Assembly: GCA_963823555.1 (NCBI GenBank)
Contig: CAWGMA010000001.1
Coordinates: 832,001 to 896,000, forward strand
DNA: 64,000 nucleotides
Direction of reading: 5' to 3'
Source of the DNA: Candidatus Eiseniibacteriota bacterium
Lineage (GTDB): Bacteria; Eisenbacteria; RBG-16-71-46; CAVPCR01
This document shows positions 13,385 through 26,906 of this stretch, one piece after another. Both the position numbers and the translations under genes were made by a program. Position 1 is the stretch's first letter, and every line of letters begins with the position of its first letter. The notes below the pieces were generated by a model. That model made no database searches. It had not been told where the DNA came from and saw only the letters and a program-made list of their open reading frames with translations.

Positions 13385-14263
13385 CTACTTGAGCAGGGTC
13401 ATCCTCTTCGTCACCGCGACCCCGGCTCCTTCGATCCTGTAGAAGTACACGCCCGAGGGTACGGGCGCGCCGGCAAGGTCCGTGCCCTCCCAGGCCACCG
13501 TGTGGTCACCGGCAACGACCTCGCCATCGATCAGGCTCCGCACCAGGGCACCTTTGGCGTCGAAGATCCGTAATGAGACGCGGCTGTCAGCGCTCAGATT
13601 GAAGCGGATCGATGTCATCGGATTGAAGGGGTTCGGCTGGTTCTGTAGCAAGCGAATCCGCTCATGCCCGGCAACCGGCTCGGCGGCAGCCACCGCCACC
13701 ACACCACCGGCCGTCTCGTGGATCGCATAGATGAAGTCGCCGAACGTGGTGCCGTCGTTGTTGGCGGCGTTCCCGGCCACGTAGAACTCGACCTGAGAAT
13801 CCGGGCCTGCGGTCCAGTCGAAGGACCACTCTCGCGGTCCCGCTGTGCCGCGCCGGGTGCCGGCGCTCGTATGCTTCAGATAATCGGGGGCCGGCGCCGG
13901 GTTGTCGCTGATCTGCGTGCTGTCCGGATCCGTGACGATGATCGTGCCGCTCGACTCGTTCTGCGCGTTGATCACGGTGAGCTCGAAGCCCCAGCGCGAC
14001 TGTCCGGGATCACTCAGGCGCACGGTGAGGCTGTAGGTCTGGCCGGCACTGATGGTTGCCGGAACGCCCAGGAGCTCGAGCTGCCCGTTCCCCGCATTGA
14101 GCGGGAAGTCGCCGTGGCAGGCGACACAGGTGAGCTGGTTCGGCGGGTTGCCCGCGTACCCGTCGGGTGGGCCGCCGCTGAAGGCCGCGCCATCCCGGAC
14201 GGCAAGAACCAGCGTGAGCGCCGTGGCCGAGAGCACGATCAGGTGCCTGCGATTCGCATTCAT
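13385..14263 (-). CDS. Secreted Reeler/choice-of-anchor-V-like protein with CxxCH motif and C-terminal FlgD-Ig (T9SS-like) domain
   Basis: Signal peptide; TCVACHG; WGFELT; WSFDWTA; YVAGNAANNDG; C-terminal LLQNQPNPFNP...WEGTD..G..VPSGVYFYRI...KRMTLLK. Confidence 0.8.
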   Translation of the reverse strand: MNANRRHLIVLSATALTLVLAVRDGAAFSGGPPDGYAGNPPNQLTCVACHGDFPLNAGNGQLELLGVPATISAGQTYSLTVRLSDPGQSRWGFELTVINAQNESSGTIIVTDPDSTQISDNPAPAPDYLKHTSAGTRRGTAGPREWSFDWTAGPDSQVEFYVAGNAANNDGTTFGDFIYAIHETAGGVVAVAAAEPVAGHERIRLLQNQPNPFNPMTSIRFNLSADSRVSLRIFDAKGALVRSLIDGEVVAGDHTVAWEGTDLAGAPVPSGVYFYRIEGAGVAVTKRMTLLK

Positions 14264-14281
14264 GTTGCCTCCTGCCGTTTA

Positions 14282-16306
14282 CTACTTGACCAGGACCATG
14301 CGATCGGTGAGCACCTGACCGCCGGCTGACAAGCGATAGATGTAGACGCCAGAGCCCACCAGGTGACCGCGGTCATCTCGTCCATCCCATTCCACGGTGT
14401 GCTCGCTGGCTCCGAGCATGGCGTCGACGAGCGTGCGCACCGTGCGGCCGCTGGGGTCATGGATGGTGAGCTGGACCGGGCCGGTCGCAGGCAGGGTGAA
14501 GCCGATGGTGGTCGAGGGATTGAAGGGGTTCGGCCGCGCGGCGTGGAGCGCGAGCCGCGTCGGCGGGGCGCCGAGCGCCGTGACCGGAGCCAGGTTGAAT
14601 GTCTGGCTGCCGCCGAAGCGATCGACCGCCTCGATCCGGTAGATATAGGTCTCGCCCGGTGTCGCCGTCCGATCGACGAACTCGTAGTCGGCGGTGTCCC
14701 CGGTGCTCGGGATCATCGCGTCATTGAGGCGCGCCGGGTGTTCGCCCTCGACCGTGCGATGGATGTGGAACCCGAGGTTGTCCATCTCGCTGGTCGTACG
14801 CCAGCTGATGACCACCGCGCCGGGCTGCGCAATCGCCTCGGCCGAGGCCATCTCGACCGCAGTGGGGGCGCAGTCCTCGGGGACGAGACGGTGCACGACA
14901 CCGCCGGTTCCGAAGGGTGCCAGTTCGCTCGACCCGCAGACGTAGATCTCGCCCGCCTCGTCCTCGCCGAATCCCTTGAGGAAGAGTCCGTAGGGTACGT
15001 TGCCGGCGCCGATCCGGAATTCCCGGATCTCGTAGCTCCCGGGCTGTAGCGCGACGAGGTAGTAGAGGCGGCCCGAAGGCGTGGTGAACTGGGCTGCGAA
15101 GTCGCCGAAGACGTACTTGCCGCGGAGGGCCGAAGAGCACGAGCCGCGGTAGACGAAGCCCCCGGTGATGCTGATGCCCCCGACCTCATGGCTGTATTCG
15201 ACGATCGGGTCGAGGAGCGGCTCGCCCAGGGGGCCGGTGGTGGCGCAGGTCGCCGGCGGGACGGTGGGGTTGAGGGGGTCGAAGCAATGGAGCCCCTCCC
15301 GGATCACCCAGCCGTAGTTGCCCCCGCGCTCGACGATGTTGACCTCCTCGAAGAGGGCCTGGCCGACATCGGCGACGAAGAGGTCGCCGGTGCCGCCCGG
15401 CCCGTCGTCGAACGAGAACTTGTAGGGATTGCGCAAGCCATAGGCATAGATCTCGTCGAGGCCGGGAACGCCGACGAAGGGATTGTCGGCCGGGATCCGG
15501 TACTCGAGCCCGGGATCCTGTCCATCGACATCGATGCGCAGCATGGCGCCGAGGGCAGTCTCGATGTTCTGGCCATTGCCAATGGGGCCGTGGGACGGCG
15601 GATCGTCTGCCAGTCCGTCACCGGCGCCGCCGCCGTCGCCGAGCGTGAAGTAGAGGAAACCATCGGGGCCGAAGGCCAGCTGACCCGCGTTGTGGTTGAA
15701 TTGAGGTTCATCCACTCGGAACAGGATTCGCTCCGAGCTGGGATCCGCGATGTTGGGGTCGGTGGTCGAGACCGCATACTCGGCCAGGATCTCCTCGTGG
15801 CAGCCACGCGAGGTGCCCACACAGGGCTCGCCTGGACTTCCTTCCCGCGGTGAGCTGTGGCGGACGAAGAAGCGCCCGTTGGTGGCGTAGTCCGGGTGGA
15901 AGGCGAGGCCCAGGAGCCCCCGCTCGTCGAAGAACGTGTTGAGCATCGGGAGCCTGTCTCCGATATCCAGGAACGGCGTGGGCAATAACACGCCCTGGTC
16001 GACGATCCAGACCTTCCCGGATTGCTCCCAGATGAAGAGGCGACCTGATCCATCTCCGGCGTGGGTCACGCCCAGCGGCGCCGTGAGTCCGTCGGCGACG
16101 GTCTCGAGGGCGACCGTGATGTCCCCCTGGGGGATCTGGGCCAGGCCGGCGGTGGCCAGGGACAGGCATAGCAGCGAGCCGAGCACGACGGGCAAGGCGA
16201 TGCGCGCGGCGCGCCGGCGATGCGGATGATCTTCCCCGTTTGATTTCGGGCGCGGAATGCGGTCGAGGACGAGGGCCTGCTTCCGGGACATTGAGCTCTT
16301 CACCAT
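14282..16306 (-). CDS. PQQ-dependent glucose/sorbosone dehydrogenase family protein with an Ig-like and a FlgD-Ig C-terminal domain
   Basis: ERGLLGLAFHP, NHNAGQLAFGPDGFLYFTLGDGG, YAYGLRNP, DVGQ..FEEVN..GGNYGW, SITGGFVYRG; C-terminal PNPFNP..WDGRD..SGVYIYRL. Start position uncertain. Confidence 0.9.
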   Translation of the reverse strand: MVKSSMSRKQALVLDRIPRPKSNGEDHPHRRRAARIALPVVLGSLLCLSLATAGLAQIPQGDITVALETVADGLTAPLGVTHAGDGSGRLFIWEQSGKVWIVDQGVLLPTPFLDIGDRLPMLNTFFDERGLLGLAFHPDYATNGRFFVRHSSPREGSPGEPCVGTSRGCHEEILAEYAVSTTDPNIADPSSERILFRVDEPQFNHNAGQLAFGPDGFLYFTLGDGGGAGDGLADDPPSHGPIGNGQNIETALGAMLRIDVDGQDPGLEYRIPADNPFVGVPGLDEIYAYGLRNPYKFSFDDGPGGTGDLFVADVGQALFEEVNIVERGGNYGWVIREGLHCFDPLNPTVPPATCATTGPLGEPLLDPIVEYSHEVGGISITGGFVYRGSCSSALRGKYVFGDFAAQFTTPSGRLYYLVALQPGSYEIREFRIGAGNVPYGLFLKGFGEDEAGEIYVCGSSELAPFGTGGVVHRLVPEDCAPTAVEMASAEAIAQPGAVVISWRTTSEMDNLGFHIHRTVEGEHPARLNDAMIPSTGDTADYEFVDRTATPGETYIYRIEAVDRFGGSQTFNLAPVTALGAPPTRLALHAARPNPFNPSTTIGFTLPATGPVQLTIHDPSGRTVRTLVDAMLGASEHTVEWDGRDDRGHLVGSGVYIYRLSAGGQVLTDRMVLVK

Positions 16307-16541
16307 GATGGCCTCCGCAGTGGTTCTGCACGCTCCGTGCAGACAGTGATGGGCCGCGATCCCGGTTCTTCCGGTGGGTTACGGCTGACGCCGGGTCCGC
16401 GCCTCACCTGGATTTCGGGGGGCAAGGAGCACGCGGGACAAGGCTCCTGGATCACCGACGGCGCCGGGCGGGAGCTGATACACGCCGGGAACGGGTGGCA
16501 GCCATAGCCTGAGGGCTGGATCTTGACCGGGGCGCGGAGGT

Positions 16542-16570
16542 TTGACGGATCCCGACGCGAAGCGTAGACT
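16542..16570 (+). promoter_or_regulatory. Putative sigma70 promoter for the carboxypeptidase gene
   Basis: TTGACG-N17-TAGACT. Confidence 0.5.
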
Positions 16571-16685
16571 AATTTCGGTCCCCGCCGTCACTTGCCGTGC
16601 CGAGCGGTCCGCACTCGGGCGCCCCGGGGCGGCTTCACCCGCCGGGCCTGCGCCTCTTCACCGTTTGCCAGAAGGAGACTCTCTG

Positions 16686-18614
16686 ATGCGGCGATTCCTC
16701 GATCTCAGCCGCCACGCTGCTGGTCGTCTCGGGCCATTCCTCGTGGTCGGCATCCTGCTCATGGCGGCTGTGATCCCCGCCCAGGCGGCGACCCGGCTCG
16801 TGAGCGTTCCTGCGGATGCCCCGGGCCTCACTGAACTCGGCCTCGAGCTCGATCACGTCACGCGTGAAGGTAGCCGCGTGATGCTCGTGGCGGGCGACTG
16901 GGACCTGGCCCAGCTCGCGGCGGCGGGGATCGACTACGAGGTCGTGATCGCCGACATGGAGGCGTACTACGCCGATCGGCTCCTCGCCGAGCGTTCGCTG
17001 TGGCAGGGAGCGAGCCCCGCGGACACGCCGGGATTCGGTCTCGGCTCGATGGGCGGTTACTACACCTGGAACGAGGTGATCGGAAAGCTCGACGAGATGC
17101 GGACGGACTATCCGACGCTCGTTACCACCAAGCAGAGCCTCGGGATCTCGCATGAGGGTCGCGACGTGTGGATGGTGAAGATATCCGACAACGCCGACCA
17201 GAGTGAAGGAGAGCCGGCGGTTCTCTACACGGCACTCACTCATGCCCGTGAGCCCGAGGGGATGATGCTCCTCGTCTACTACATGTTCCATCTCCTCGAG
17301 AACTACGGGACCGATCCCGAGGCCACGTACCTGGTCAACGAGCGGGAGATGTACTTCGTGCCGGTCATGAATCCCGACGGGTACGTTTACAACCAGACGA
17401 CCGATCCCTCCGGCGGCGGCATGTGGCGGAAGAACCGGCGCGACAACGGCGGTGGCATCTACGGGGTCGATCTGAATCGCAACTACAGCTTCTACTGGGG
17501 CTACGACAACCAGGGCTCGAGCCCCACCCCGAGCTCGAGCACCTACCGTGGGCCGGCGCCGTTCTCCGAGCCCGAGACGTCGGCGATCCGGAACTTCCAC
17601 CAGGGGCCGACGATCACGACTGCCTTTCACTATCACACCTACGGCAACTACGAGATCCATCCCTTCGGTATCGCGCCGACCGCGTTCCCGCCGGAGCCCG
17701 ACTACAGCCTGTATCTCTTCTACGGCAGCGAGATCTCGGCGATGAACGGTTATCTCGTCGGCAACTCGTGGGGCACGGTCCACTACGCGGTGAACGGCGA
17801 CGCCGTCGACTGGAGCTACGGCGAACAGACCGAGAAGAACAAGGTCTTCGCCTTCATCCCCGAGGTGGGAAGCCAGAGCGACGGGTTCTGGCCGCCGTCT
17901 TCGCGCATCGTGCCGCTCGCCGAGGAGAACCGCGGCCCGAATCTCTACTGGGCCTGGATCGCCGGAGCGCGCGGGGTGCTGACCGGGGCCATGGCGGGAC
18001 CGGAGGTGCCGGCCGGAGCCACGTCACCGGTCGTCGTCGACGCCGGCAACTTCGGTCTCGGGTCGGCCGCCAGCGATCTCACGGTGGCTCTCGCGTCGGC
18101 CGACCCCTATGTGACGATCGCTGTGCCGGAGAAGCCGTTCCCGGTGCTCGGGCCGCTCGAAGTCGGCAACAATGCGAGCGACCCGCTCGAGTTCACGGTT
18201 GTCGCCGGGGCGCCGGGCGGCCATGTGATCCCGCTCCAGGTGACACTCAAGCAGGGTGGTGTCGTGCGCGGCCAGACCAACATCCAGGTGACGGTGCAGG
18301 CCTCGGCTGGTGTGGGCGAGAACGGAGCGCCTGGGATCGGCACGCTCGCGGTGCGTGCGACTCCGAACCCGATGGCCGGTGGCACCGAGGTCCGGCTCGC
18401 TCTGCCGGCTGCGGGACGCGTCGAGGTGGCGGTCGTCGATGTCGCGGGCCGCGTGCGCCGGACGCTGGCGGTGGGGGAGATGGCGGGGGGTGAGCACCGG
18501 ATCGCCTTCGATGGGCGCGACGACTCGGGCGCGGGGCTGGCGAGTGGGGTTTACCTGATCCAGGTGCGAGCCGGCGCGGCTCACGCCGAGACGCGGCTCG
18601 TCGTGCTCAGGTGA
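16686..18614 (+). CDS. M14 zinc carboxypeptidase (carboxypeptidase T-like) with C-terminal FlgD-Ig domain
   Basis: HARE zinc motif, PVMNPDG, WRKNR, GVDLNRNY, FSEPET, YHTY; AGGAG RBS; C-terminal PNP..FDGRDDSG..LASGVYL. Confidence 0.92.
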   Translation: MRRFLDLSRHAAGRLGPFLVVGILLMAAVIPAQAATRLVSVPADAPGLTELGLELDHVTREGSRVMLVAGDWDLAQLAAAGIDYEVVIADMEAYYADRLLAERSLWQGASPADTPGFGLGSMGGYYTWNEVIGKLDEMRTDYPTLVTTKQSLGISHEGRDVWMVKISDNADQSEGEPAVLYTALTHAREPEGMMLLVYYMFHLLENYGTDPEATYLVNEREMYFVPVMNPDGYVYNQTTDPSGGGMWRKNRRDNGGGIYGVDLNRNYSFYWGYDNQGSSPTPSSSTYRGPAPFSEPETSAIRNFHQGPTITTAFHYHTYGNYEIHPFGIAPTAFPPEPDYSLYLFYGSEISAMNGYLVGNSWGTVHYAVNGDAVDWSYGEQTEKNKVFAFIPEVGSQSDGFWPPSSRIVPLAEENRGPNLYWAWIAGARGVLTGAMAGPEVPAGATSPVVVDAGNFGLGSAASDLTVALASADPYVTIAVPEKPFPVLGPLEVGNNASDPLEFTVVAGAPGGHVIPLQVTLKQGGVVRGQTNIQVTVQASAGVGENGAPGIGTLAVRATPNPMAGGTEVRLALPAAGRVEVAVVDVAGRVRRTLAVGEMAGGEHRIAFDGRDDSGAGLASGVYLIQVRAGAAHAETRLVVLR

Positions 18615-19099: not shown

Positions 19100-19567
19100 A
19101 TGAATCGATTGCTCACGTGTCTCGCTGTCTCGCTCGTTGCTCTTCTGTTCATACCATCCATCACCTCGGCGAATTGCACCCAGGGCTTCTGGAAGAATCA
19201 CCCCTATCTGTGGTGTGCTCAGTCGCTGCAGCTCGGCGATGTTGTGTACAACCAGGACGAGCTGCTCAGTATCCTGTGGCTGGAAGTGGAGGGGAACGGC
19301 CTTGTCTCGCTTGCGCACCAGCTCATCGCGGCGAAGCTCAACGTTGCCTGTGGTGCCGACCCGATCGATTGCATTGCTGACGCCGATGCGCTCGTCGGAA
19401 TGCTGGTTGTGCCTCCGGTTGGAACTGGACATCTACCTCCTGAGGTCACATCGCCGCTCATCCAGTGTCTGACTGCCTTCAACGAATCGCCGGGCGGTAA
19501 CACGCTCTGCGATGTCATCCCGATCGACCCGACCAATTGGGGGTCCATCAAGGCGATGTACCGCTAG
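19100..19567 (+). CDS. Small secreted protein (TQGFWKNH-type domain) with C-terminal WGSIKAMYR tail
   Basis: GGAGG RBS; signal peptide; CTQGFWKNHP..LAHQLIAAKLNV motif; ends PIDPTNWGSIKAMYR. Confidence 0.75.
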   Translation: MNRLLTCLAVSLVALLFIPSITSANCTQGFWKNHPYLWCAQSLQLGDVVYNQDELLSILWLEVEGNGLVSLAHQLIAAKLNVACGADPIDCIADADALVGMLVVPPVGTGHLPPEVTSPLIQCLTAFNESPGGNTLCDVIPIDPTNWGSIKAMYR

Positions 19568-19594
19568 AGCGTCGTCCCTCAACTAGCTATCGTT

Positions 19595-19636
19595 CAGTGA
19601 CCCCGGGGGAGCGTTCCGCCGGGGTCGCTGTTTCTT
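19595..19636 (+). terminator. Rho-independent terminator
   Basis: CAGTGACCCCGG / CCGGGGTCGCTG stem followed by TTTCTT. Confidence 0.65.
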
Positions 19637-19818
19637 GTGAGTTGGCGGTTGCTGGGAGGGTGAGGTCCTCATCCGACTTCCTGGAGCCTGGAGAGCTGCG
19701 ACGAGTGAATGCCGCACCTTTCGGCTTGCGCCATCGTGTAATGTCAGAAGCTCCGGAATGAGCCCGCAATGAGTCATTAACAAAGAACAAGATCATCCGA
19801 AGGTGAGGAATCCCATCC

Positions 19819-20409
19819 ATGCACACCTGCTGGAATCGGCCGTCTGGTCCGCGTGCACTTCTCGTTGTGTTCCTTCTGGTCGCGGCGGGAGCCTTCTCCA
19901 CCGCCCACGCCGAGGCTGTCATCTATGAGGCGAGTCTCGACGGGCAGAGCCAGTCTCCACCCAACGCATCCCCCGGAATCGGGAACGGTCTGGTTGAACT
20001 CGACGCCGTGGCGCACACGATGCGCATGAGGGTCACCTTCAGCGGGCTGATGGGCACCACCACTGTCTGTCATATTCATGCGCCGACCGCGGTGCCCGGG
20101 ACAGGGACCGTGGGGGTGGCGACGCCGACCTTTCCCGGGTTCCCAGCCGGCGTTACGGCCGGGATCTATGACCATACATTCGACATGACCCTGCCGACCA
20201 GCTACAGCGCGAGCTTCCTGGCCGCCAACGGTGGGACCGCAGCCGGTGCGGAAGCTGCCCTGTTCCAGGCCATCGCTGATGGCAGGGCATACCTCAACAT
20301 CCACACGAGCGAATTTCCCGGGGGGGAAATCCGCGGCTTCTTCCAGCCCCTTAGCCCGACGCCCACGGACGAGACGACCTGGGGACGATTGAAGTCGCTC
20401 TATGATTGA
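19819..20409 (+). CDS. Secreted CHRD domain protein with C-terminal WGRLKSLYD tail
   Basis: Signal peptide; FSGL..TTVCHIH; GRAYLNIHTSEFPGGEIRGF (CHRD signature); ends TPTDETTWGRLKSLYD. Confidence 0.88.
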   Translation: MHTCWNRPSGPRALLVVFLLVAAGAFSTAHAEAVIYEASLDGQSQSPPNASPGIGNGLVELDAVAHTMRMRVTFSGLMGTTTVCHIHAPTAVPGTGTVGVATPTFPGFPAGVTAGIYDHTFDMTLPTSYSASFLAANGGTAAGAEAALFQAIADGRAYLNIHTSEFPGGEIRGFFQPLSPTPTDETTWGRLKSLYD

Positions 20410-20469
20410 TAGCGTTGAGGAAGCGGGCGCCTGGCGCGCCCGGATCACCTGAGGCCACTGGTCGCGCCA

Positions 20470-20688
20470 CGCGGGATCGACGTACGAGTGGAACAGGCGC
20501 CCGACCTTGCCGGTTTTCCGGCGCGTGATCTCTCTGTACCGGATCAGATTGCTAAAGATGAGCGCGCGGAGAAGGGGACGGGGTTGTGATGCCCCGACGA
20601 TCCAAGGACGCCGTGATGGCCACGGCCGACACGACGGCCCACGCTACGCATGCCACGGCCAGGAACATCAGTCCGTATGGATGCTCAT
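20470..20688 (-). pseudogene. Frameshifted small membrane protein gene (remnant or sequence error)
   Basis: ATG 20688 after a GGGAG..GGGG RBS; frames join as MSIHT/LMFLAVACVAWAVVSAVAITASLDRRGITTP/LLRALIFSNLIRYREITRRKTGKVGRLFHSYV. 3' end not defined. Confidence 0.4.
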
Positions 20689-20796
20689 TGCAGACCCCCT
20701 GCTCCCGTCACGGGATCTCTTGACCGGCACGTGGATGACGTCCCTACGGCGTCCTCATGCCGTCCTGGCGGGAGGCGGATCGCGCGTCCCCCGCGG

Positions 20797-22176
20797 CTAC
20801 TTGATGAGGGCGAGCGGCTCGGTCTCGGTGCCGGTGGGCGAGGTCACACGCAGGTAGTACACGCCGCTTGCGGTGGTCTGGCCGGCGTCGGTGTCGCCGT
20901 TCCATCTGAGGCGATGCTCGCCCGCGGACATTCGGCCGTGATGGAGTGATCGGACGAGGCGCCCGTGCACATCGTAGATCGCAACGCGTAGCGGGACGCT
21001 CGAGTCATTTGTGAGCAGCGAGATGGTGGTCGCCGGGTTGAAGGGATTCGGAAAGACGCCGCGCAGCACCTGGCGCTCGGACGCCGCGACGGGATCGAGC
21101 TGGAGGCCGGCCGTGCCCCGCACGCTCTCGAAGATGTAGAGCCCGGTCTCGACGTCGCTGGCGAGGATCCTTCCGGACGGCAGGAACGGATAGACCCCCC
21201 AGGTGCCACCGTAGGTGGCGGGCGGTGTTCCCGGAGTCGTGTCATAGAAGTAGGACTCCACCGGGTTCTGGGGATCCGAGATGTCGACGACGCGCACGCC
21301 CTCCCAGTAATAGGATATGTAGACGAGCCCCTCCTGGATGAACGCGTTGTGGATGATGCGCGCCTCGGCGCCGGTCGCCGTGTACTCGCCATCGGGAAGG
21401 ACAGCGCCCAGATCGGTGATATCCCAGATCCGCAGGTGCCCGCCTTGGGTTTCATCGGTCGTGACGGCGATGGTTGCGTCTTCGTTCGTCCAGACGTTGT
21501 GGCAGACGGCGTTCGGCCAGGTGACGATGGTCACGGTATCGATGCTGGCAGGGTTGGTCACGTCGAGGATATACAGACCCGACCCGTGGGGAGCGTCGTT
21601 GTAGATCTTGGCGCCGTAGAGGATGCCATCCTTGACATAGCCGTCGTGCAGGTAGCGGTCGCTATAGTCACCGATCTGAGTGGGCGCGAGCGGGTTGGAG
21701 ATGTCCAGGATGGGATTGTTGTTGCCGACCCCGAACAGGTAGGCGCGCTGGGTCGTCTCATCGATATAGAGGTTGTGGGCGGTGGTCCCCCACCGGGTGG
21801 CGTCGAACGCGGCGTAGGGGTTCGATACGTCGATCACCTGCATTCCTCCGGAAGCCTCGCTGACCGAGAACACGTAGTCGCCCAGATGCTTCATGTCCCG
21901 CCAGTTCGACTGCGGGCCGGGGACGAAGGAGGCGACGACCGGAACGGCCGGGTTGGTGACATCGATGATGTAGACCCCGAGCGAGGAGCCGAGGACCGCG
22001 AATTCGCTGCCGTTGGCCGCGAACCCCCAGACATCGCTGTAGCTCCAGTTGAAGGGAGGGTAGTTGCAGTCACACGGATCGAGGGTGCCGAGGAGGTTGA
22101 GCTCCTGGGAGCCGACTGCGGTCGAGGTCACGATCAAGAGAGCGAGCAACGCGCTGCAGGCCGAGAGTCGAATCAT
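20797..22176 (-). CDS. LVIVD-repeat (choice-of-anchor B-like) secreted protein with FlgD-Ig domain
   Basis: YSDVWG, repeated IIDVTNP/VIDVSNP/ILDISNP, HNVW, HNAF, SYYWEG, WGVYPFLPSG; C-terminal FPNPFNP..WNGDTD..SGVYYL. Confidence 0.85.
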   Translation of the reverse strand: MIRLSACSALLALLIVTSTAVGSQELNLLGTLDPCDCNYPPFNWSYSDVWGFAANGSEFAVLGSSLGVYIIDVTNPAVPVVASFVPGPQSNWRDMKHLGDYVFSVSEASGGMQVIDVSNPYAAFDATRWGTTAHNLYIDETTQRAYLFGVGNNNPILDISNPLAPTQIGDYSDRYLHDGYVKDGILYGAKIYNDAPHGSGLYILDVTNPASIDTVTIVTWPNAVCHNVWTNEDATIAVTTDETQGGHLRIWDITDLGAVLPDGEYTATGAEARIIHNAFIQEGLVYISYYWEGVRVVDISDPQNPVESYFYDTTPGTPPATYGGTWGVYPFLPSGRILASDVETGLYIFESVRGTAGLQLDPVAASERQVLRGVFPNPFNPATTISLLTNDSSVPLRVAIYDVHGRLVRSLHHGRMSAGEHRLRWNGDTDAGQTTASGVYYLRVTSPTGTETEPLALIK

Positions 22177-22227
22177 GTTGTCTTCCCTTCGCACAACGGC
22201 AAACCAGGCTGGTCAGAGGCCGGAAGG

Positions 22228-23709
22228 CTAACGCGCCACGACGAGGACACGACTCTCGGTGCGACCGGAGGTGCGGAGTCGTACGAAGTACACTCCATTG
22301 GATACGCGGGCGCCCGACGCATCCTGCAAATCCCAGGTGATCGATCCGCCGCGGATCCCGGCGCCGGAGTCGGCACCGCCGGCGCGAAGCGTGCGCACCA
22401 GCCGTCCCGCCACATCGTAGACCTCGACCCGCGCATCCGTGGTGAGCGGCCGCCCAAGAGCCAGGCGGACCGCGGTCGCCGCGGGATTCGGAGTCGGTCG
22501 GCCGAGGGCTGGCGAGCCGGGGGCCGCGGCGTCACCGCCGGCGGCGTCGCCGATCGCGGCTGCCGCGCAGGTGTCGTACGACGCGCCCATGAGCTGGTTG
22601 CAGGCGTTGTTCTGGGGGCGGGCAGGGGAGAGAGCGGTGAGATTGTAGCCATCCGAGAAGGGTGGGGCGCCCGCGCACTCCTCGGGATCACAGAACAGCG
22701 GATCCTCGAACACGCATGCCGAGTTGTAGTCCGGAATGCCGGTGCCGGCGACACTCGCCGGATCGACGAGGCTGCAGAGGAAGGCCGTGGTCACCATCGA
22801 TCCATCGAGCGTGACATCCGGTACCCCGCAGGTGCCGTTGCCCCAGACGATGCAGCGATCGAGGACCACATCGGCCTGGCCGGCGCAGCTGACGGCGATG
22901 CCCCCGCCGCTCGCGCTGGCGAAGTTCCCGGCGATCGTCGAGCTCGTGAGATAGACGCTGAAGAAGGGACAATCGGCGAAGAGCCCGGCTCCGATCCCCG
23001 CCGAGTTGCCGATGATCGTGCAGCGGTTGACGGCTCCGTCGGGGGTGGCGACCCCGCCGCCCCTGCCCTCCGTCCCGCCGAAGTCGCTCGCCCAGTTGCC
23101 GCGGATCGTGCACTGAAAGAGCGTGGCGTTGTCGACGAACACGCCCCCGCCGAGCCCGGGAACGCCGCCTCCGGAGCCGTTGCCGTCGAACAAGCAGTAC
23201 TGGACCGAGCCTCCGGCCGTGTACATCCCACCGCCGCGTCCATCCGCAGCGATGTTGGCGGTGAAGACGCAGCTCTGCACGAGCGGCGAGCACCCCGCCG
23301 CGATGAGCATTCCGGCGCCGTCCGGCGAGATGTTCGCCGCCGTGGGCCTGAAGTTCTGGATCGTGAAGCCCTCGATGAGTGTCGTCAGCCCCTCGTTGTT
23401 GTGGAGGTGGATGCCGCGCGCATCGGTGAGCTCCCCGTCGATGATCGTGGCCTCGGCCCCCGCTTCGGAGACGAGGCGGATCGCCTTGCCGCCAAAGTCG
23501 ATGTTGCGGTTTCCGGGCCCCGTGTAGAGGCCGGGTGCGACGAGGACCGAGTCGCCCGGTGAGGCGGCGTCAACACCGGCCTGGATCGTGGGCGCGGCGG
23601 AGGGAACGCGGATGGTGGCCGCGGCGGACGGTCCCGGCCCGAAGGCGAGCAGGGAACTGGCCACGATGACCGCGAGAAGACCAGGAATCGGCAGGTGGGG
23701 GATGGGCAT
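22228..23709 (-). CDS. Secreted right-handed beta-helix repeat protein with FlgD-Ig domain
   Basis: TIRVP..PTIQAGVDAA..GDSVLVAPGLYTGPGNRNIDFGGK; repeated FxxN/GGG motifs; DPLFC; C-terminal PNP..WDLQD..GVYFVRL. Confidence 0.85.
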   Translation of the reverse strand: MPIPHLPIPGLLAVIVASSLLAFGPGPSAAATIRVPSAAPTIQAGVDAASPGDSVLVAPGLYTGPGNRNIDFGGKAIRLVSEAGAEATIIDGELTDARGIHLHNNEGLTTLIEGFTIQNFRPTAANISPDGAGMLIAAGCSPLVQSCVFTANIAADGRGGGMYTAGGSVQYCLFDGNGSGGGVPGLGGGVFVDNATLFQCTIRGNWASDFGGTEGRGGGVATPDGAVNRCTIIGNSAGIGAGLFADCPFFSVYLTSSTIAGNFASASGGGIAVSCAGQADVVLDRCIVWGNGTCGVPDVTLDGSMVTTAFLCSLVDPASVAGTGIPDYNSACVFEDPLFCDPEECAGAPPFSDGYNLTALSPARPQNNACNQLMGASYDTCAAAAIGDAAGGDAAAPGSPALGRPTPNPAATAVRLALGRPLTTDARVEVYDVAGRLVRTLRAGGADSGAGIRGGSITWDLQDASGARVSNGVYFVRLRTSGRTESRVLVVAR

Positions 23710-23796
23710 GCAACTACCTCCGGGACGGGAAGTCGAGCCCCAGGCTGGCTCCTTACCGGATCATTCTAGAAGATCGAACCGGGACATGCCAACCCA

Positions 23797-24594
23797 TCAG
23801 GATCCTGGCATCGGCAGGAGCACCTGGGCTTGCAGGCGAAGTTGCCAGTCGGGGCCGACATCGGGTTTGACGACGTTGTAGTAGGCCTGCGACTGCACGT
23901 TGAGCGGCAGCTTGCCCAGGAAGAGCAGCTTGCCTCCTCCCGCCCCGAACGGCACCACCCACCGCTGATCGGACTCGGCCTTCCAGTTCACCGTGATGAT
24001 GGGCGCGCTGTTCACGTACCAGCCGTTGCCGAGCTGGCGGACGATGAAGTACTGGAGGAGACCTCTGTTCACGTCGTCACGATCCGAGTCGCCGGCGAAC
24101 GACCACACGTTGTTGGCCAGGAGCCCCAACGTCCAGGGGCCGTTCTGAGACAGGACGACAGCGGACGGCCCCAGGCTCCACTTCTCCGTGCCGCGGTGTT
24201 CTCCACCAGAGGGGATCTCGAGCACGGGTCCCACACCCCATGTCACCGATCCGCTGGGCGGTACGTAGAACGCTGTGAACACGATGTCAGACAGGCCTGA
24301 AGAGAAGCGGCCACTCTCGGCCGTGATGTCGGGTAGCCACACGACGGGGAAGATGGTGCGGGTCACGATCCGCCCCCCGGCCAGCGGGATGACGGGCTGG
24401 ATGTTCAGCACGTTCCGGGTGCGATCGAACTCGCCGAGTCCGAAGTCATCGTTGAGCTGTAGCGGCACGCTCACGAGGTCAGCGATCGGATTGGCTGCCT
24501 CTTGCGCCAGGTCCTGGGCGGATTGCTGCGCAGGAGAGATCCGCGGCGTCATCAGCAGCAAGAACAGGACGCCGATCACGAACGACCTTGGCAC
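23797..24594 (-). CDS. Putative outer-membrane beta-barrel ('neuromedin U'/MetA-pathway-like family)
   Basis: Signal peptide; LAQEAANPIADLVSVPLQ, LNIQPVIP, GLSDI, KWSLGPS, WVVPFGAGGGK; GTG start after GGAGG. Confidence 0.75.
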   Translation of the reverse strand: MPRSFVIGVLFLLLMTPRISPAQQSAQDLAQEAANPIADLVSVPLQLNDDFGLGEFDRTRNVLNIQPVIPLAGGRIVTRTIFPVVWLPDITAESGRFSSGLSDIVFTAFYVPPSGSVTWGVGPVLEIPSGGEHRGTEKWSLGPSAVVLSQNGPWTLGLLANNVWSFAGDSDRDDVNRGLLQYFIVRQLGNGWYVNSAPIITVNWKAESDQRWVVPFGAGGGKLLFLGKLPLNVQSQAYYNVVKPDVGPDWQLRLQAQVLLPMPGS

Positions 24595-24794
24595 TCTTTC
24601 GCCTCCCTGGCTGAAGTCTCGCATTGCGCGATCGGCCCGATGATCCCAGCTCCTCACGCTCTCCGCACCTCGGCAAGTCCTCACATCTAGCACTCGCTTC
24701 CCCACGGTCAACGCGCCCACGTCCCTGGCAGGTGCCCGGAAGGGCCGCCTGAGCCCTGTTGGCGGCGCGATGCCCAATGGCCACCGCGAGAACA

Positions 24795-24845
24795 TCACTG
24801 CTTGTAGGTGCCCTTGATATCGCCCCAGCGTACGGGCTCCTCCGG
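24795..24845 (-). pseudogene. Orphan 3' gene remnant encoding a WGxIKxxY tail
   Basis: Minus strand reads PEEPVRWGDIKGTYKQ-stop with no credible protein body upstream. Confidence 0.45.
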
Positions 24846-24960
24846 CCTCCTCTCGCCGGCGATCGCGATGCGACGAGCGCTGCACGGGCCGTCCAGGCTC
24901 CGGGGCCGGGAGCGTGGAGAGACTGGGCGAAGCCCCCCCGGCCAGTGCCCCGCCCCCTTC

Positions 24961-25077: not shown

Positions 25078-25515
25078 ATGGGCGAGCCGCTGCCCGATCT
25101 CTCTCGATTCGAGCTCGAGGTGCTGCGCCGGGTGTGGACCCGGGGCGAAGCGACGGCGCGCGACATCCACGCCGATCTCCCGTCCCCGCCGAGCTACTCC
25201 ACCGTGCGCAAGATCTTCGAGCGCCTGGAGGAGAAGGGGGCCATCCTCCGTGTCCGCCGGGACGGGAGGGCATGGGTCTATCGCTCGGCGGTCAAGTCCT
25301 CGGCCATGATCCAGAAGGAGATCCGGCGTCTCCTGGACGGCCTCTTCGGTGGTCGGGCGGCCTCGCTCGTCGCCCATCTCGCCGAGATGGATGAACTGAG
25401 CCTCGCCGATATCCGCGAGATCGAGAGTCTCCTCGACACCGAGCGACCGCACGAGAACGCCCCGGATACCGCTCGCGGCGAAGGGCGACCGCAGCGCACA
25501 AGGAGGCCGGCATGA
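25078..25515 (+). CDS. BlaI/MecI/CopY family transcriptional repressor
   Basis: LSRFELEVLRRVW, SYSTVRKIFERLEEKG, LLDGLFGGRAASLVAHL; GGAGG RBS. Confidence 0.92.
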   Translation: MGEPLPDLSRFELEVLRRVWTRGEATARDIHADLPSPPSYSTVRKIFERLEEKGAILRVRRDGRAWVYRSAVKSSAMIQKEIRRLLDGLFGGRAASLVAHLAEMDELSLADIREIESLLDTERPHENAPDTARGEGRPQRTRRPA

Positions 25516-26906
25516 ACTCCCTCGCTGTCTTCCTGCAAGATGTCTGGTTCGCCGTCGGAGTTCACCTCTGGCAGACCGCGATCGTTCTCGTTCCGGTCCT
25601 CGTCCTGGCGCGCTGGTTCGCTCGGGTGCCGGCCCGCGCCCTCGACATCCTGTGGGGGCTCGCGCTCCTCAAGCTGCTCCTTCCGGCCGCTTTCATCGCG
25701 GAACTCATGGCTCTGCCCGCTCACATCGCGCCGCTGCTGTCCAGGCTCGGCCTTGCCACCGTGTCTCCAGCCGATACCTGGATTCGTGTCATCGACCCCT
25801 CGCTCGGGGTCACGGCAACCGCGCGCGATTCGACGCTGCTCGGACCGGCTCTTCTCCTCCTGACCGTGCTCTGGGCGGTGGTGGCGGTGGTGTCGATCCT
25901 ACGATCGGTCAAGGAGCTCGGCCGGCCTGACGCAACCGAGGTGGTTGCCCTGGCCGGACCGCAGCGGATCAAGCTCGAGCGGGCAGCGGCCGCCGCCGGG
26001 GTTCCCATCGAGAGCATCGTGGTCCATGGCAGGGACACGCTGCCCTTCGTCACGGGCCTCCTCAGCCCGCGCCTTCATCTTCCATCTCGCCTGGTCCACG
26101 AGATGACGAACGAGGACCTGGTTGCGGTTCTCCTTCACGAGCACGCTCACGCTCGCCGGCGGGATCCGCTCCGGCGCGCCCTCTACCGCGCTCTCGATGC
26201 GGTGTTGTTCTTCTACCCCGTGTGGTGGTTCTTGCGGGGGAAGCTCGAGGAGAGCGCCGAGCTGGTCTGTGATGACTTCGTGCTGCGGGCTGGGGTCCCG
26301 GCCGAGAGCTACAGCCGCGCCCTGGCCCGCTGCCTCGCCTCGAACCTCGTGGCAGACAGGCCGTCCTTTGCGGCGGCGATGGCGGAAGGCGGATTTCTCA
26401 AGCGCCGTCTCATCTCCTTGACGAGACGGGGGAGGTTCACAGTGATGAGTCGCTCTGGAATCATGCTGCTATCGGCCCTGGTTCTGGTCACGGCTGGATC
26501 CCTGGCGCCCGTCGTGATCACGGGTTGCGGGTCCGAGTCCGATCAGACGGCAGGGACGGAGTCGCCCGTGTCGAGCCCGGCGGCGACCGTGGCCGTGACG
26601 AAGGAAGGCGCCGCAGCGGACATGCAGGAGCTTGATGAGATGCCGAAGCTCATCGAGATGGGGAAGGTCGAGTACCCCGAGTCGGCGCGGAAGGCGGGTG
26701 CCGAGGGGATGGTCTTGATCAAGGCCAAGGTCTCGGCGGAAGGCAAGGTCGCCGAGGCCGAGATCGAATCGGGTGTGGAAGGCTACCCCGAGCTTGGAGA
26801 CTCGGCCCTGAACGCGGTGCGCGAGGCAACCTTCACGCCGGGCATCCTCGACGGGAAGCCTGTCGAGAGCTGGGTCAAGATCCCGGTCAAGTTCGCGCTC
26901 AATTAG
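25512..26906 (+). CDS. BlaR1-like M56 metallopeptidase fused to a C-terminal TonB domain
   Basis: ATGA overlap with the repressor gene; HLWQ, PFVTGLLSP, LLHEHAH (HExxH), FFYPVWW, ELVCD; C-terminal YPESARKAGAEGMV..F.PG..GKPV..IPVKF. Confidence 0.88.
   Translation: MNSLAVFLQDVWFAVGVHLWQTAIVLVPVLVLARWFARVPARALDILWGLALLKLLLPAAFIAELMALPAHIAPLLSRLGLATVSPADTWIRVIDPSLGVTATARDSTLLGPALLLLTVLWAVVAVVSILRSVKELGRPDATEVVALAGPQRIKLERAAAAAGVPIESIVVHGRDTLPFVTGLLSPRLHLPSRLVHEMTNEDLVAVLLHEHAHARRRDPLRRALYRALDAVLFFYPVWWFLRGKLEESAELVCDDFVLRAGVPAESYSRALARCLASNLVADRPSFAAAMAEGGFLKRRLISLTRRGRFTVMSRSGIMLLSALVLVTAGSLAPVVITGCGSESDQTAGTESPVSSPAATVAVTKEGAAADMQELDEMPKLIEMGKVEYPESARKAGAEGMVLIKAKVSAEGKVAEAEIESGVEGYPELGDSALNAVREATFTPGILDGKPVESWVKIPVKFALN

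Follow-up and report, generated by a model that had tools for sequence, protein, structure and literature searches.

A short C-terminal helix on small secreted proteins of Candidatus Eiseniibacteriota is a likely address label of an undescribed protein-sorting machine

The window considered here is a whole stretch of 64,000 nucleotides from a Candidatus Eiseniibacteriota bacterium (NCBI GenBank assembly GCA_963823555.1, contig CAWGMA010000001.1, positions 832,001 to 896,000 of the forward strand), in which unrelated secreted proteins end in the same short peptide, termed the TWG tail. Two genes of the plus strand carry this tail: (i) a 155-amino acid (aa) signal-peptide protein at 19100..19567, which has no match in Pfam and NCBIfam scans and whose tail, stop codon included, spans 19520..19567 (tail-profile score 40.6), and (ii) a 196-aa CHRD-domain protein with a signal peptide at 19819..20409 (PF07452, E 8.3e-20, residues 37-174), whose tail, stop codon included, spans 20359..20409 (score 36.7). 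The original prediction, made from the sequence of the window, listed a third copy at 24795..24845 on the minus strand. All three peptides are found in place and the first two end genuine signal-peptide proteins, but the third is not evidence for the motif, as it scores only 21.9 and ends a 63-aa open reading frame (ORF) without a signal peptide. This ORF is not among the genes called in the genome by a crude gene caller of our own, and its tail-like peptide has an Arg where a Thr or Ser normally precedes the Trp; a remnant or a chance resemblance is more probable than a cargo protein.

The tail is abundant in the source genome (4.62 Mb, 92.5% complete), where it ends 74 of the 3,452 called genes compared to 0.01 expected from 200 shuffles. 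In 150,655 six-frame segments a regular expression for the motif matches 97 times, and 92 of these matches lie no more than 8 residues from a stop; a profile search recovers 109 tailed segments, including a few fragments or repeats at contig ends. The consensus is [TV]-[PA]-V-E-[PSE]-[SAT]-[TS]-W-G-x-[IV]-K-x-x-[YF]-R; a profile built by column from 90 tails has 9-10 mixed residues between the Trp and the stop, while among 82 aligned tails from several phyla the Trp and Lys are invariant and the Thr, Gly and Ile nearly so. Signal-peptide-like N-termini, scored by a crude hydrophobicity rule, are found on 81 of 108 tailed proteins, on 208 of 264 proteins with a C-terminal domain (CTD) of type IX secretion systems (T9SS) and on 1,100 of 3,123 other genes. 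The tail has no transmembrane helix and is predicted by AlphaFold2 to form a short free helix on the cargo, with a predicted local distance difference test (pLDDT) score of about 50. This helix would place Trp, Ile/Val and Tyr/Phe on one side (mean net charge +1.7, mean hydrophobic moment 0.35). No Pfam or NCBIfam model covers the tail in the three window ORFs, nor any Pfam model in the 48 of the 109 tailed proteins that were scanned. The original reading of the tail as a candidate sorting signal is supported in this genome, and none of the refuting conditions that it listed applied: the motif is frequent, C-terminal, enriched on signal-peptide proteins, without a match to a Pfam or NCBIfam model, and predicted to be helical without spanning the membrane.

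An exosortase anchor had been doubted from the start, and an origin of the tail in the exosortase/PEP-CTERM system is rejected, as no exosortase is found in the genome (PF09721, no match at E 1 in an assembly 92.5% complete; the positive control matched) and the tail is devoid of a transmembrane helix and basic cluster. The two signals are nevertheless alike in being short, portable and borne by small passengers such as CHRD proteins, and the V-E-P-[SA]-T-W of the tail resembles the V-P-E-P-[SA]-T-W motif of PEP-CTERM/PEPxxWA-CTERM proteins.

The tailed proteins are small and diverse. The 106 passengers fall into 64 clusters, and 31 of the 48 scanned tailed proteins have no Pfam match at E 0.01; the remainder include beta-helix, PKD, CHRD, propeller and carbohydrate-binding-like proteins and one c-type cytochrome (L014:14922-15683, minus strand). 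Lipoproteins are also found among the cargo. The tailed proteins have a median length of 239 aa and a maximum of 492 aa, such that none of 108 exceeds 500 aa, compared to 184 of 264 CTD proteins of the same genome; elsewhere, 3 of 70 and 1 of 150 tailed proteins in two samples surpass this length. The tail occupies the same slot as the T9SS CTD on paralogous passengers: CTD-bearing paralogs exist for 37 of the 106, of which 22 (in 7 clusters) are homologous up to both junctions, and beta-helix and PKD proteins are among those that swap one signal for the other. None of the 264 CTD proteins of this genome carries the tail as well.

The genome encodes the T9SS proteins SprA (451 bits, cut-off 200) and PorU (475 bits, cut-off 420) and seven PorV/PorQ-family barrels. 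The motor gene GldM was not found, nor was GldN, although the positive control of the GldN search also gave no match. SprA occurs in 149 genomes of a sample of 153 and in 38 of the 40 in a second sample. The type A CTDs of this system (TIGR04183/PF18962; FlgD_ig-like PF13860 in this genome) and the tail share (i) a C-terminal position on unrelated Sec-exported passengers, (ii) interchangeability on paralogs, (iii) a similar junction of small residues followed by Val or Ile and (iv) occurrence in the same genomes. The tail, by contrast, is only 15-20 residues long, is a predicted helix without motifs B, D and E, is found on cargo of under about 500 aa, stands internally and in tandem as well, and tracks a barrel operon (below) rather than SprA. 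The described CTDs, including those of 40-55 residues from Prevotella intermedia, are beta-sheet domains with motifs B, D and E (PMC11285876, PMC11969387), and their beta-sheet nature is likewise reported in PMC10202324 and PMC4804311. No CTD of the TIGR04183/PF18962 type, a domain of 40-100 residues, was matched on the three window ORFs or on the 48 scanned tailed proteins. The tail resembles a CTD in position but is not a member of the CTD family.

Beyond this genome, the DNA pattern of the tail is abundant in most of 153 genomes, and a scan of species genomes gives at least 125 stretches with the pattern. The labels of the 125 listed stretches are Eiseniibacteriota (40), Latescibacterota (8), Krumholzibacteriota (5) and other (10), with 62 unlabelled; record titles are, however, an unreliable guide to phylum, since one genome with a Gemmatimonadota title belongs to a phylum that has only 10 genomes at 90% completeness. 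The low-count family f18 and the outlier genome G016 were considered as tail-negative controls and rejected, having kept 3-6 true tails or a W-S variant. At the protein level, the tail profile matches 2,080 clusters out of 1.84 billion, and in 148 of the best 150 of these the motif lies at most 8 residues from the end. A search of the ESM Atlas with the tail gave no usable match. The literature searched, which covered few subscription papers, contained no description of the tail and none of T9SS-like sorting for these phyla.

A candidate reader of the tail lies outside of the window as an operon on contig 2 of the genome (G000 C2:173417-176930) encoding an outer-membrane barrel (663 aa) and two lipoproteins, LPA (182 aa) and LPB (219 aa). 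The operon was found through a lipoprotein family with multiple tails: 11 of the best 150 tail matches carry more than one motif and 10 of these 11 belong to the LPA/LPB family, a tail-less member of which lies in the operon. Within this family the motif is N-terminal, follows each domain, is internal or is repeated in up to four tandem copies. A cluster of three tandem LPB-type genes (L009:8714-11864, minus strand) includes two that encode two-domain lipoproteins with the motif after each domain. The operon proteins have no Pfam or NCBIfam match above cut-off; LPA and the barrel find nothing significant among PDB sequences, and the barrel retrieves only unnamed clusters from the ESM Atlas. 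The barrel is single-copy and has about 30 strands by a crude count from the alignment pattern. All three genes stand together in 47 of the 51 barrel loci, sequence ends having truncated the remaining four, and they are preceded by housekeeping genes that are putatively rsmA and tatD.

LPA links the operon to the tail. In 100 of 106 homologs its C-terminus reads [ST]-W-[GA]-x-[LF]-[KR]-x-x-x-R, and 59 have Tyr at the position that it occupies in cargo. The LPA motif aligns in register with the cargo tail (hhalign, E 4e-5, probability 70). LPA and LPB are paralogs (probability 99.4), yet the operon-type LPB stops before the helix. A cargo-type tail is carried by 30 of 64 LPB-family homologs, which by their different N-terminus look like free-standing paralogs. 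The AlphaFold2 model of LPA (pLDDT 94.8) is an NTF2-like cone of the cystatin/NTF2 alpha-beta type, with a best Z of 15.6 and a root-mean-square deviation of 1.9 over 121 residues to 3rob_A, and Foldseek agrees. The terminal helix (residues 167-174, pLDDT 97) is predicted to pack on the NTF2 domain of LPA itself, while the tail of the cargo is predicted to be free.

Across one phylum in which SprA is retained, the tailed cargo shares its pattern of presence and absence with the operon. This phylum is that of a Zixiibacteriota-titled record and was sampled by 41 genomes, or 40 once the centre genome (G168) is left out. Pattern counts are near background in these genomes, and 12 of them carry one conserved, small, secreted tailed protein of about 135 aa with a weak transthyretin-like match. 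This protein is encoded directly after rex in 11 of 12 loci (L180-L191); Rex as a functional partner was rejected, the association being one of synteny only. Nine residues of its tail are invariant while its domain drops to 30% identity. Profiled against the T9SS across genomes, as the original prediction had proposed, cargo presence follows the barrel (12 of 12 genomes with the cargo and 0 of 28 without it) and not SprA (40 of 40). LPA is absent from the four cargo-negative genomes tested and was found in the control, and the cargo domain is absent from the five negatives tested, save for weak matches to large proteins in one. On trees of SprA, the cargo-positive genomes split into three groups and the negatives into four, which equates to 3 changes with a crude chance of 1 in 35. 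Outside of the Zixibacteria sample, the barrel is found in 43 of 46 tail-bearing genomes.

The tail is thus likely to label proteins for a sorting machine that is so far undescribed, and the pathway that it would address is best matched by the unnamed barrel-lipoprotein operon rather than by the T9SS itself. In the proposed mechanism, a small Sec-exported protein reaches the periplasm with a portable helix of 15-20 residues at its end, and this helix would bind a vacant, equivalent site on LPB or displace the helix of LPA. LPA and LPB may sit at or in the barrel, by analogy to LptE in LptD, while the barrel would deliver the cargo to, or through, the outer membrane alongside the T9SS, its width setting the size ceiling of about 500 residues. 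A probability of roughly 0.45 is assigned to this reading, in which the helix would dock cargo on the barrel-lipoprotein complex for passage across the outer membrane. More tentative is the fuller proposal of an outer-membrane secretion system that would be shared by several uncultured phyla related to the Fibrobacteres-Chlorobi-Bacteroidetes (FCB) group, operate beside a motor-less T9SS and use a barrel of about 30 strands, with two NTF2-fold lipoproteins as its gate; its substrates would be small folded proteins only, chosen by helix complementation in which the cargo supplies the helix that LPB is without. Two links were put to the test here, namely the homology between the tail and the LPA helix and the concordant loss of operon and cargo.

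The same complex could instead serve for docking only, with the tail tethering small binding proteins to LPB-type lipoproteins or to the barrel complex, either at the membrane or within the periplasm, without export, much as a dockerin does on a scaffold. The internal, N-terminal and tandem copies of the motif, which imply that a free C-terminus is not needed, are consistent with docking, as are the lipoproteins and c-type cytochrome among the cargo and the tails on nearly half of the LPB-family homologs. This explanation is considered unlikely, as the tail replaces a secretion signal on paralogs (the beta-helix and PKD proteins included), a single-copy complex could not stably hold 100 different proteins, and the receptor operon contains a wide barrel.

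Equally to be weighed is a minimal fourth signal of the T9SS, in which a PorV-family barrel or SprA reads the helix, a PorU-type sortase cuts the T/AV junction and the barrel operon merely travels along. The machinery for such a route is encoded in the genome, and the slot swap with the CTD would be accounted for. In addition, a CTD-linker-like junction is found in 65 of 109 tails and 133 of 223 CTD linkers compared to a background of 19%, and lies near the PT/GI cleavage consensus (PMC11969387); cleavage of T9SS CTDs is described as sequence-independent (PMC4804311). A Pro follows the would-be cut (position +1) in 46 of the 109 tails, the tail is a helix rather than a beta-sheet of the described kind, SprA is retained in 28 of 28 genomes without cargo, and four tail-negative genomes still have the stand-alone PorV paralog that is the most conserved. 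These features render a T9SS signal improbable. A generic amphipathic, basic helix that inserts in the membrane or binds lipopolysaccharide (LPS) without a protein receptor would suit the one-sided aromatic and aliphatic face and positive charge of the tail but is very unlikely, given the invariant or nearly invariant Trp, Lys, Thr, Gly and Ile across phyla, the nine fixed tail residues of a cargo family with a diverged domain and a co-distribution with the operon that lipid binding would not lead one to expect.

Several points weigh against docking on, and export by, the barrel complex. The packing of the LPA helix is read from pLDDT only. Several genomes, this one among them, have a degenerate LPA motif (7 of 27 rows fall below the 99th background percentile). 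Four tail-bearing assemblies of unstated completeness have no barrel match, namely G158, G177 and G191, with 10-26 pattern matches each, and G168, with one tailed gene. The clusters that resemble the barrel are labelled Bacteroidota and Acidobacteriota. The Zixibacteria comparison rests on one cargo family and 3-4 independent changes, with rooting that differs between trees; variant tails would escape the DNA pattern that defined its cargo-negative genomes, and related genomes are not independent. Lastly, all tail-rich genomes tested also have SprA, and the majority of tails start with a junction like that of a CTD linker.

If export by the barrel complex is correct, an unnamed and widely conserved envelope operon would gain a function, and 2-3% of the proteins of whole uncultured phyla, represented by the clusters that match the tail profile, would gain a route. 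The operon and tail would also provide a candidate receptor-signal pair with small soluble parts and a tag of 15-20 residues as a possible tool for display or secretion. They would further suggest how a sorting signal can arise, through the copying of a structural helix of the machine itself.

Two known systems offer partial parallels. LptD-LptE is a wide, plug-less outer-membrane barrel with a lipoprotein partner, an architecture that the operon recalls; the operon differs in its two NTF2-fold lipoproteins, and its barrel, in contrast to a core LPS exporter, went undetected in 28 of the 40 genomes from one phylum. The barrel has no match to LptD at E 1 in Pfam or NCBIfam and none in PDB sequences, and LptD is not among the six barrel candidates scanned in the genome, although no genome-wide search for LptD was made. 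In cohesin-dockerin docking, a short helical module on many unrelated proteins binds a common receptor, as proposed for the tail; the two share no sequence or fold likeness, and the receptor candidate here is NTF2-like.

Among the T9SS components, a stand-alone PorV2-like barrel (G000 C1:1490698-1491834; L006:6702-7835, minus strand) is single-copy in 44 of 47 genomes from several phyla and was ruled out as the tail reader, as four genomes that lack the tail pattern fall within its clade. An acidic DxNGNG loop is inserted in many of its members, and in 4 of 32 loci its neighbour is a homolog of C25 peptidases. The Peptidase_C25 family has 21 matches in the genome, six of them in tandem (G000 C1:489988-519129 and elsewhere). 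A porU-porV locus on contig 1 (L003:5104-19020) is followed by two weak DUF5683-like genes and an NHL propeller, and continues with a 1,151-aa protein that matches SprA weakly and with an Omp85 barrel.

Tailed genes and CTD genes cluster together genome-wide. In the window, CTDs of the FlgD_ig/T9SS type terminate five proteins encoded next to the tailed genes (13385-18614, 20797-23709): a GSDH propeller, an M14 peptidase, a choice-of-anchor B protein, a beta-helix protein and one unnamed. The third tail-like peptide overlaps the open frame upstream of a minus-strand gene (23797-24885) for a probable secreted or outer-membrane protein, which has no Pfam match at E 0.1. Further along (25078-26906, plus strand) lies a gene for what we take to be a BlaI-type repressor; the next one seems to encode a membrane protein of the BlaR1/M56 type with a fused TonB C-terminal domain.

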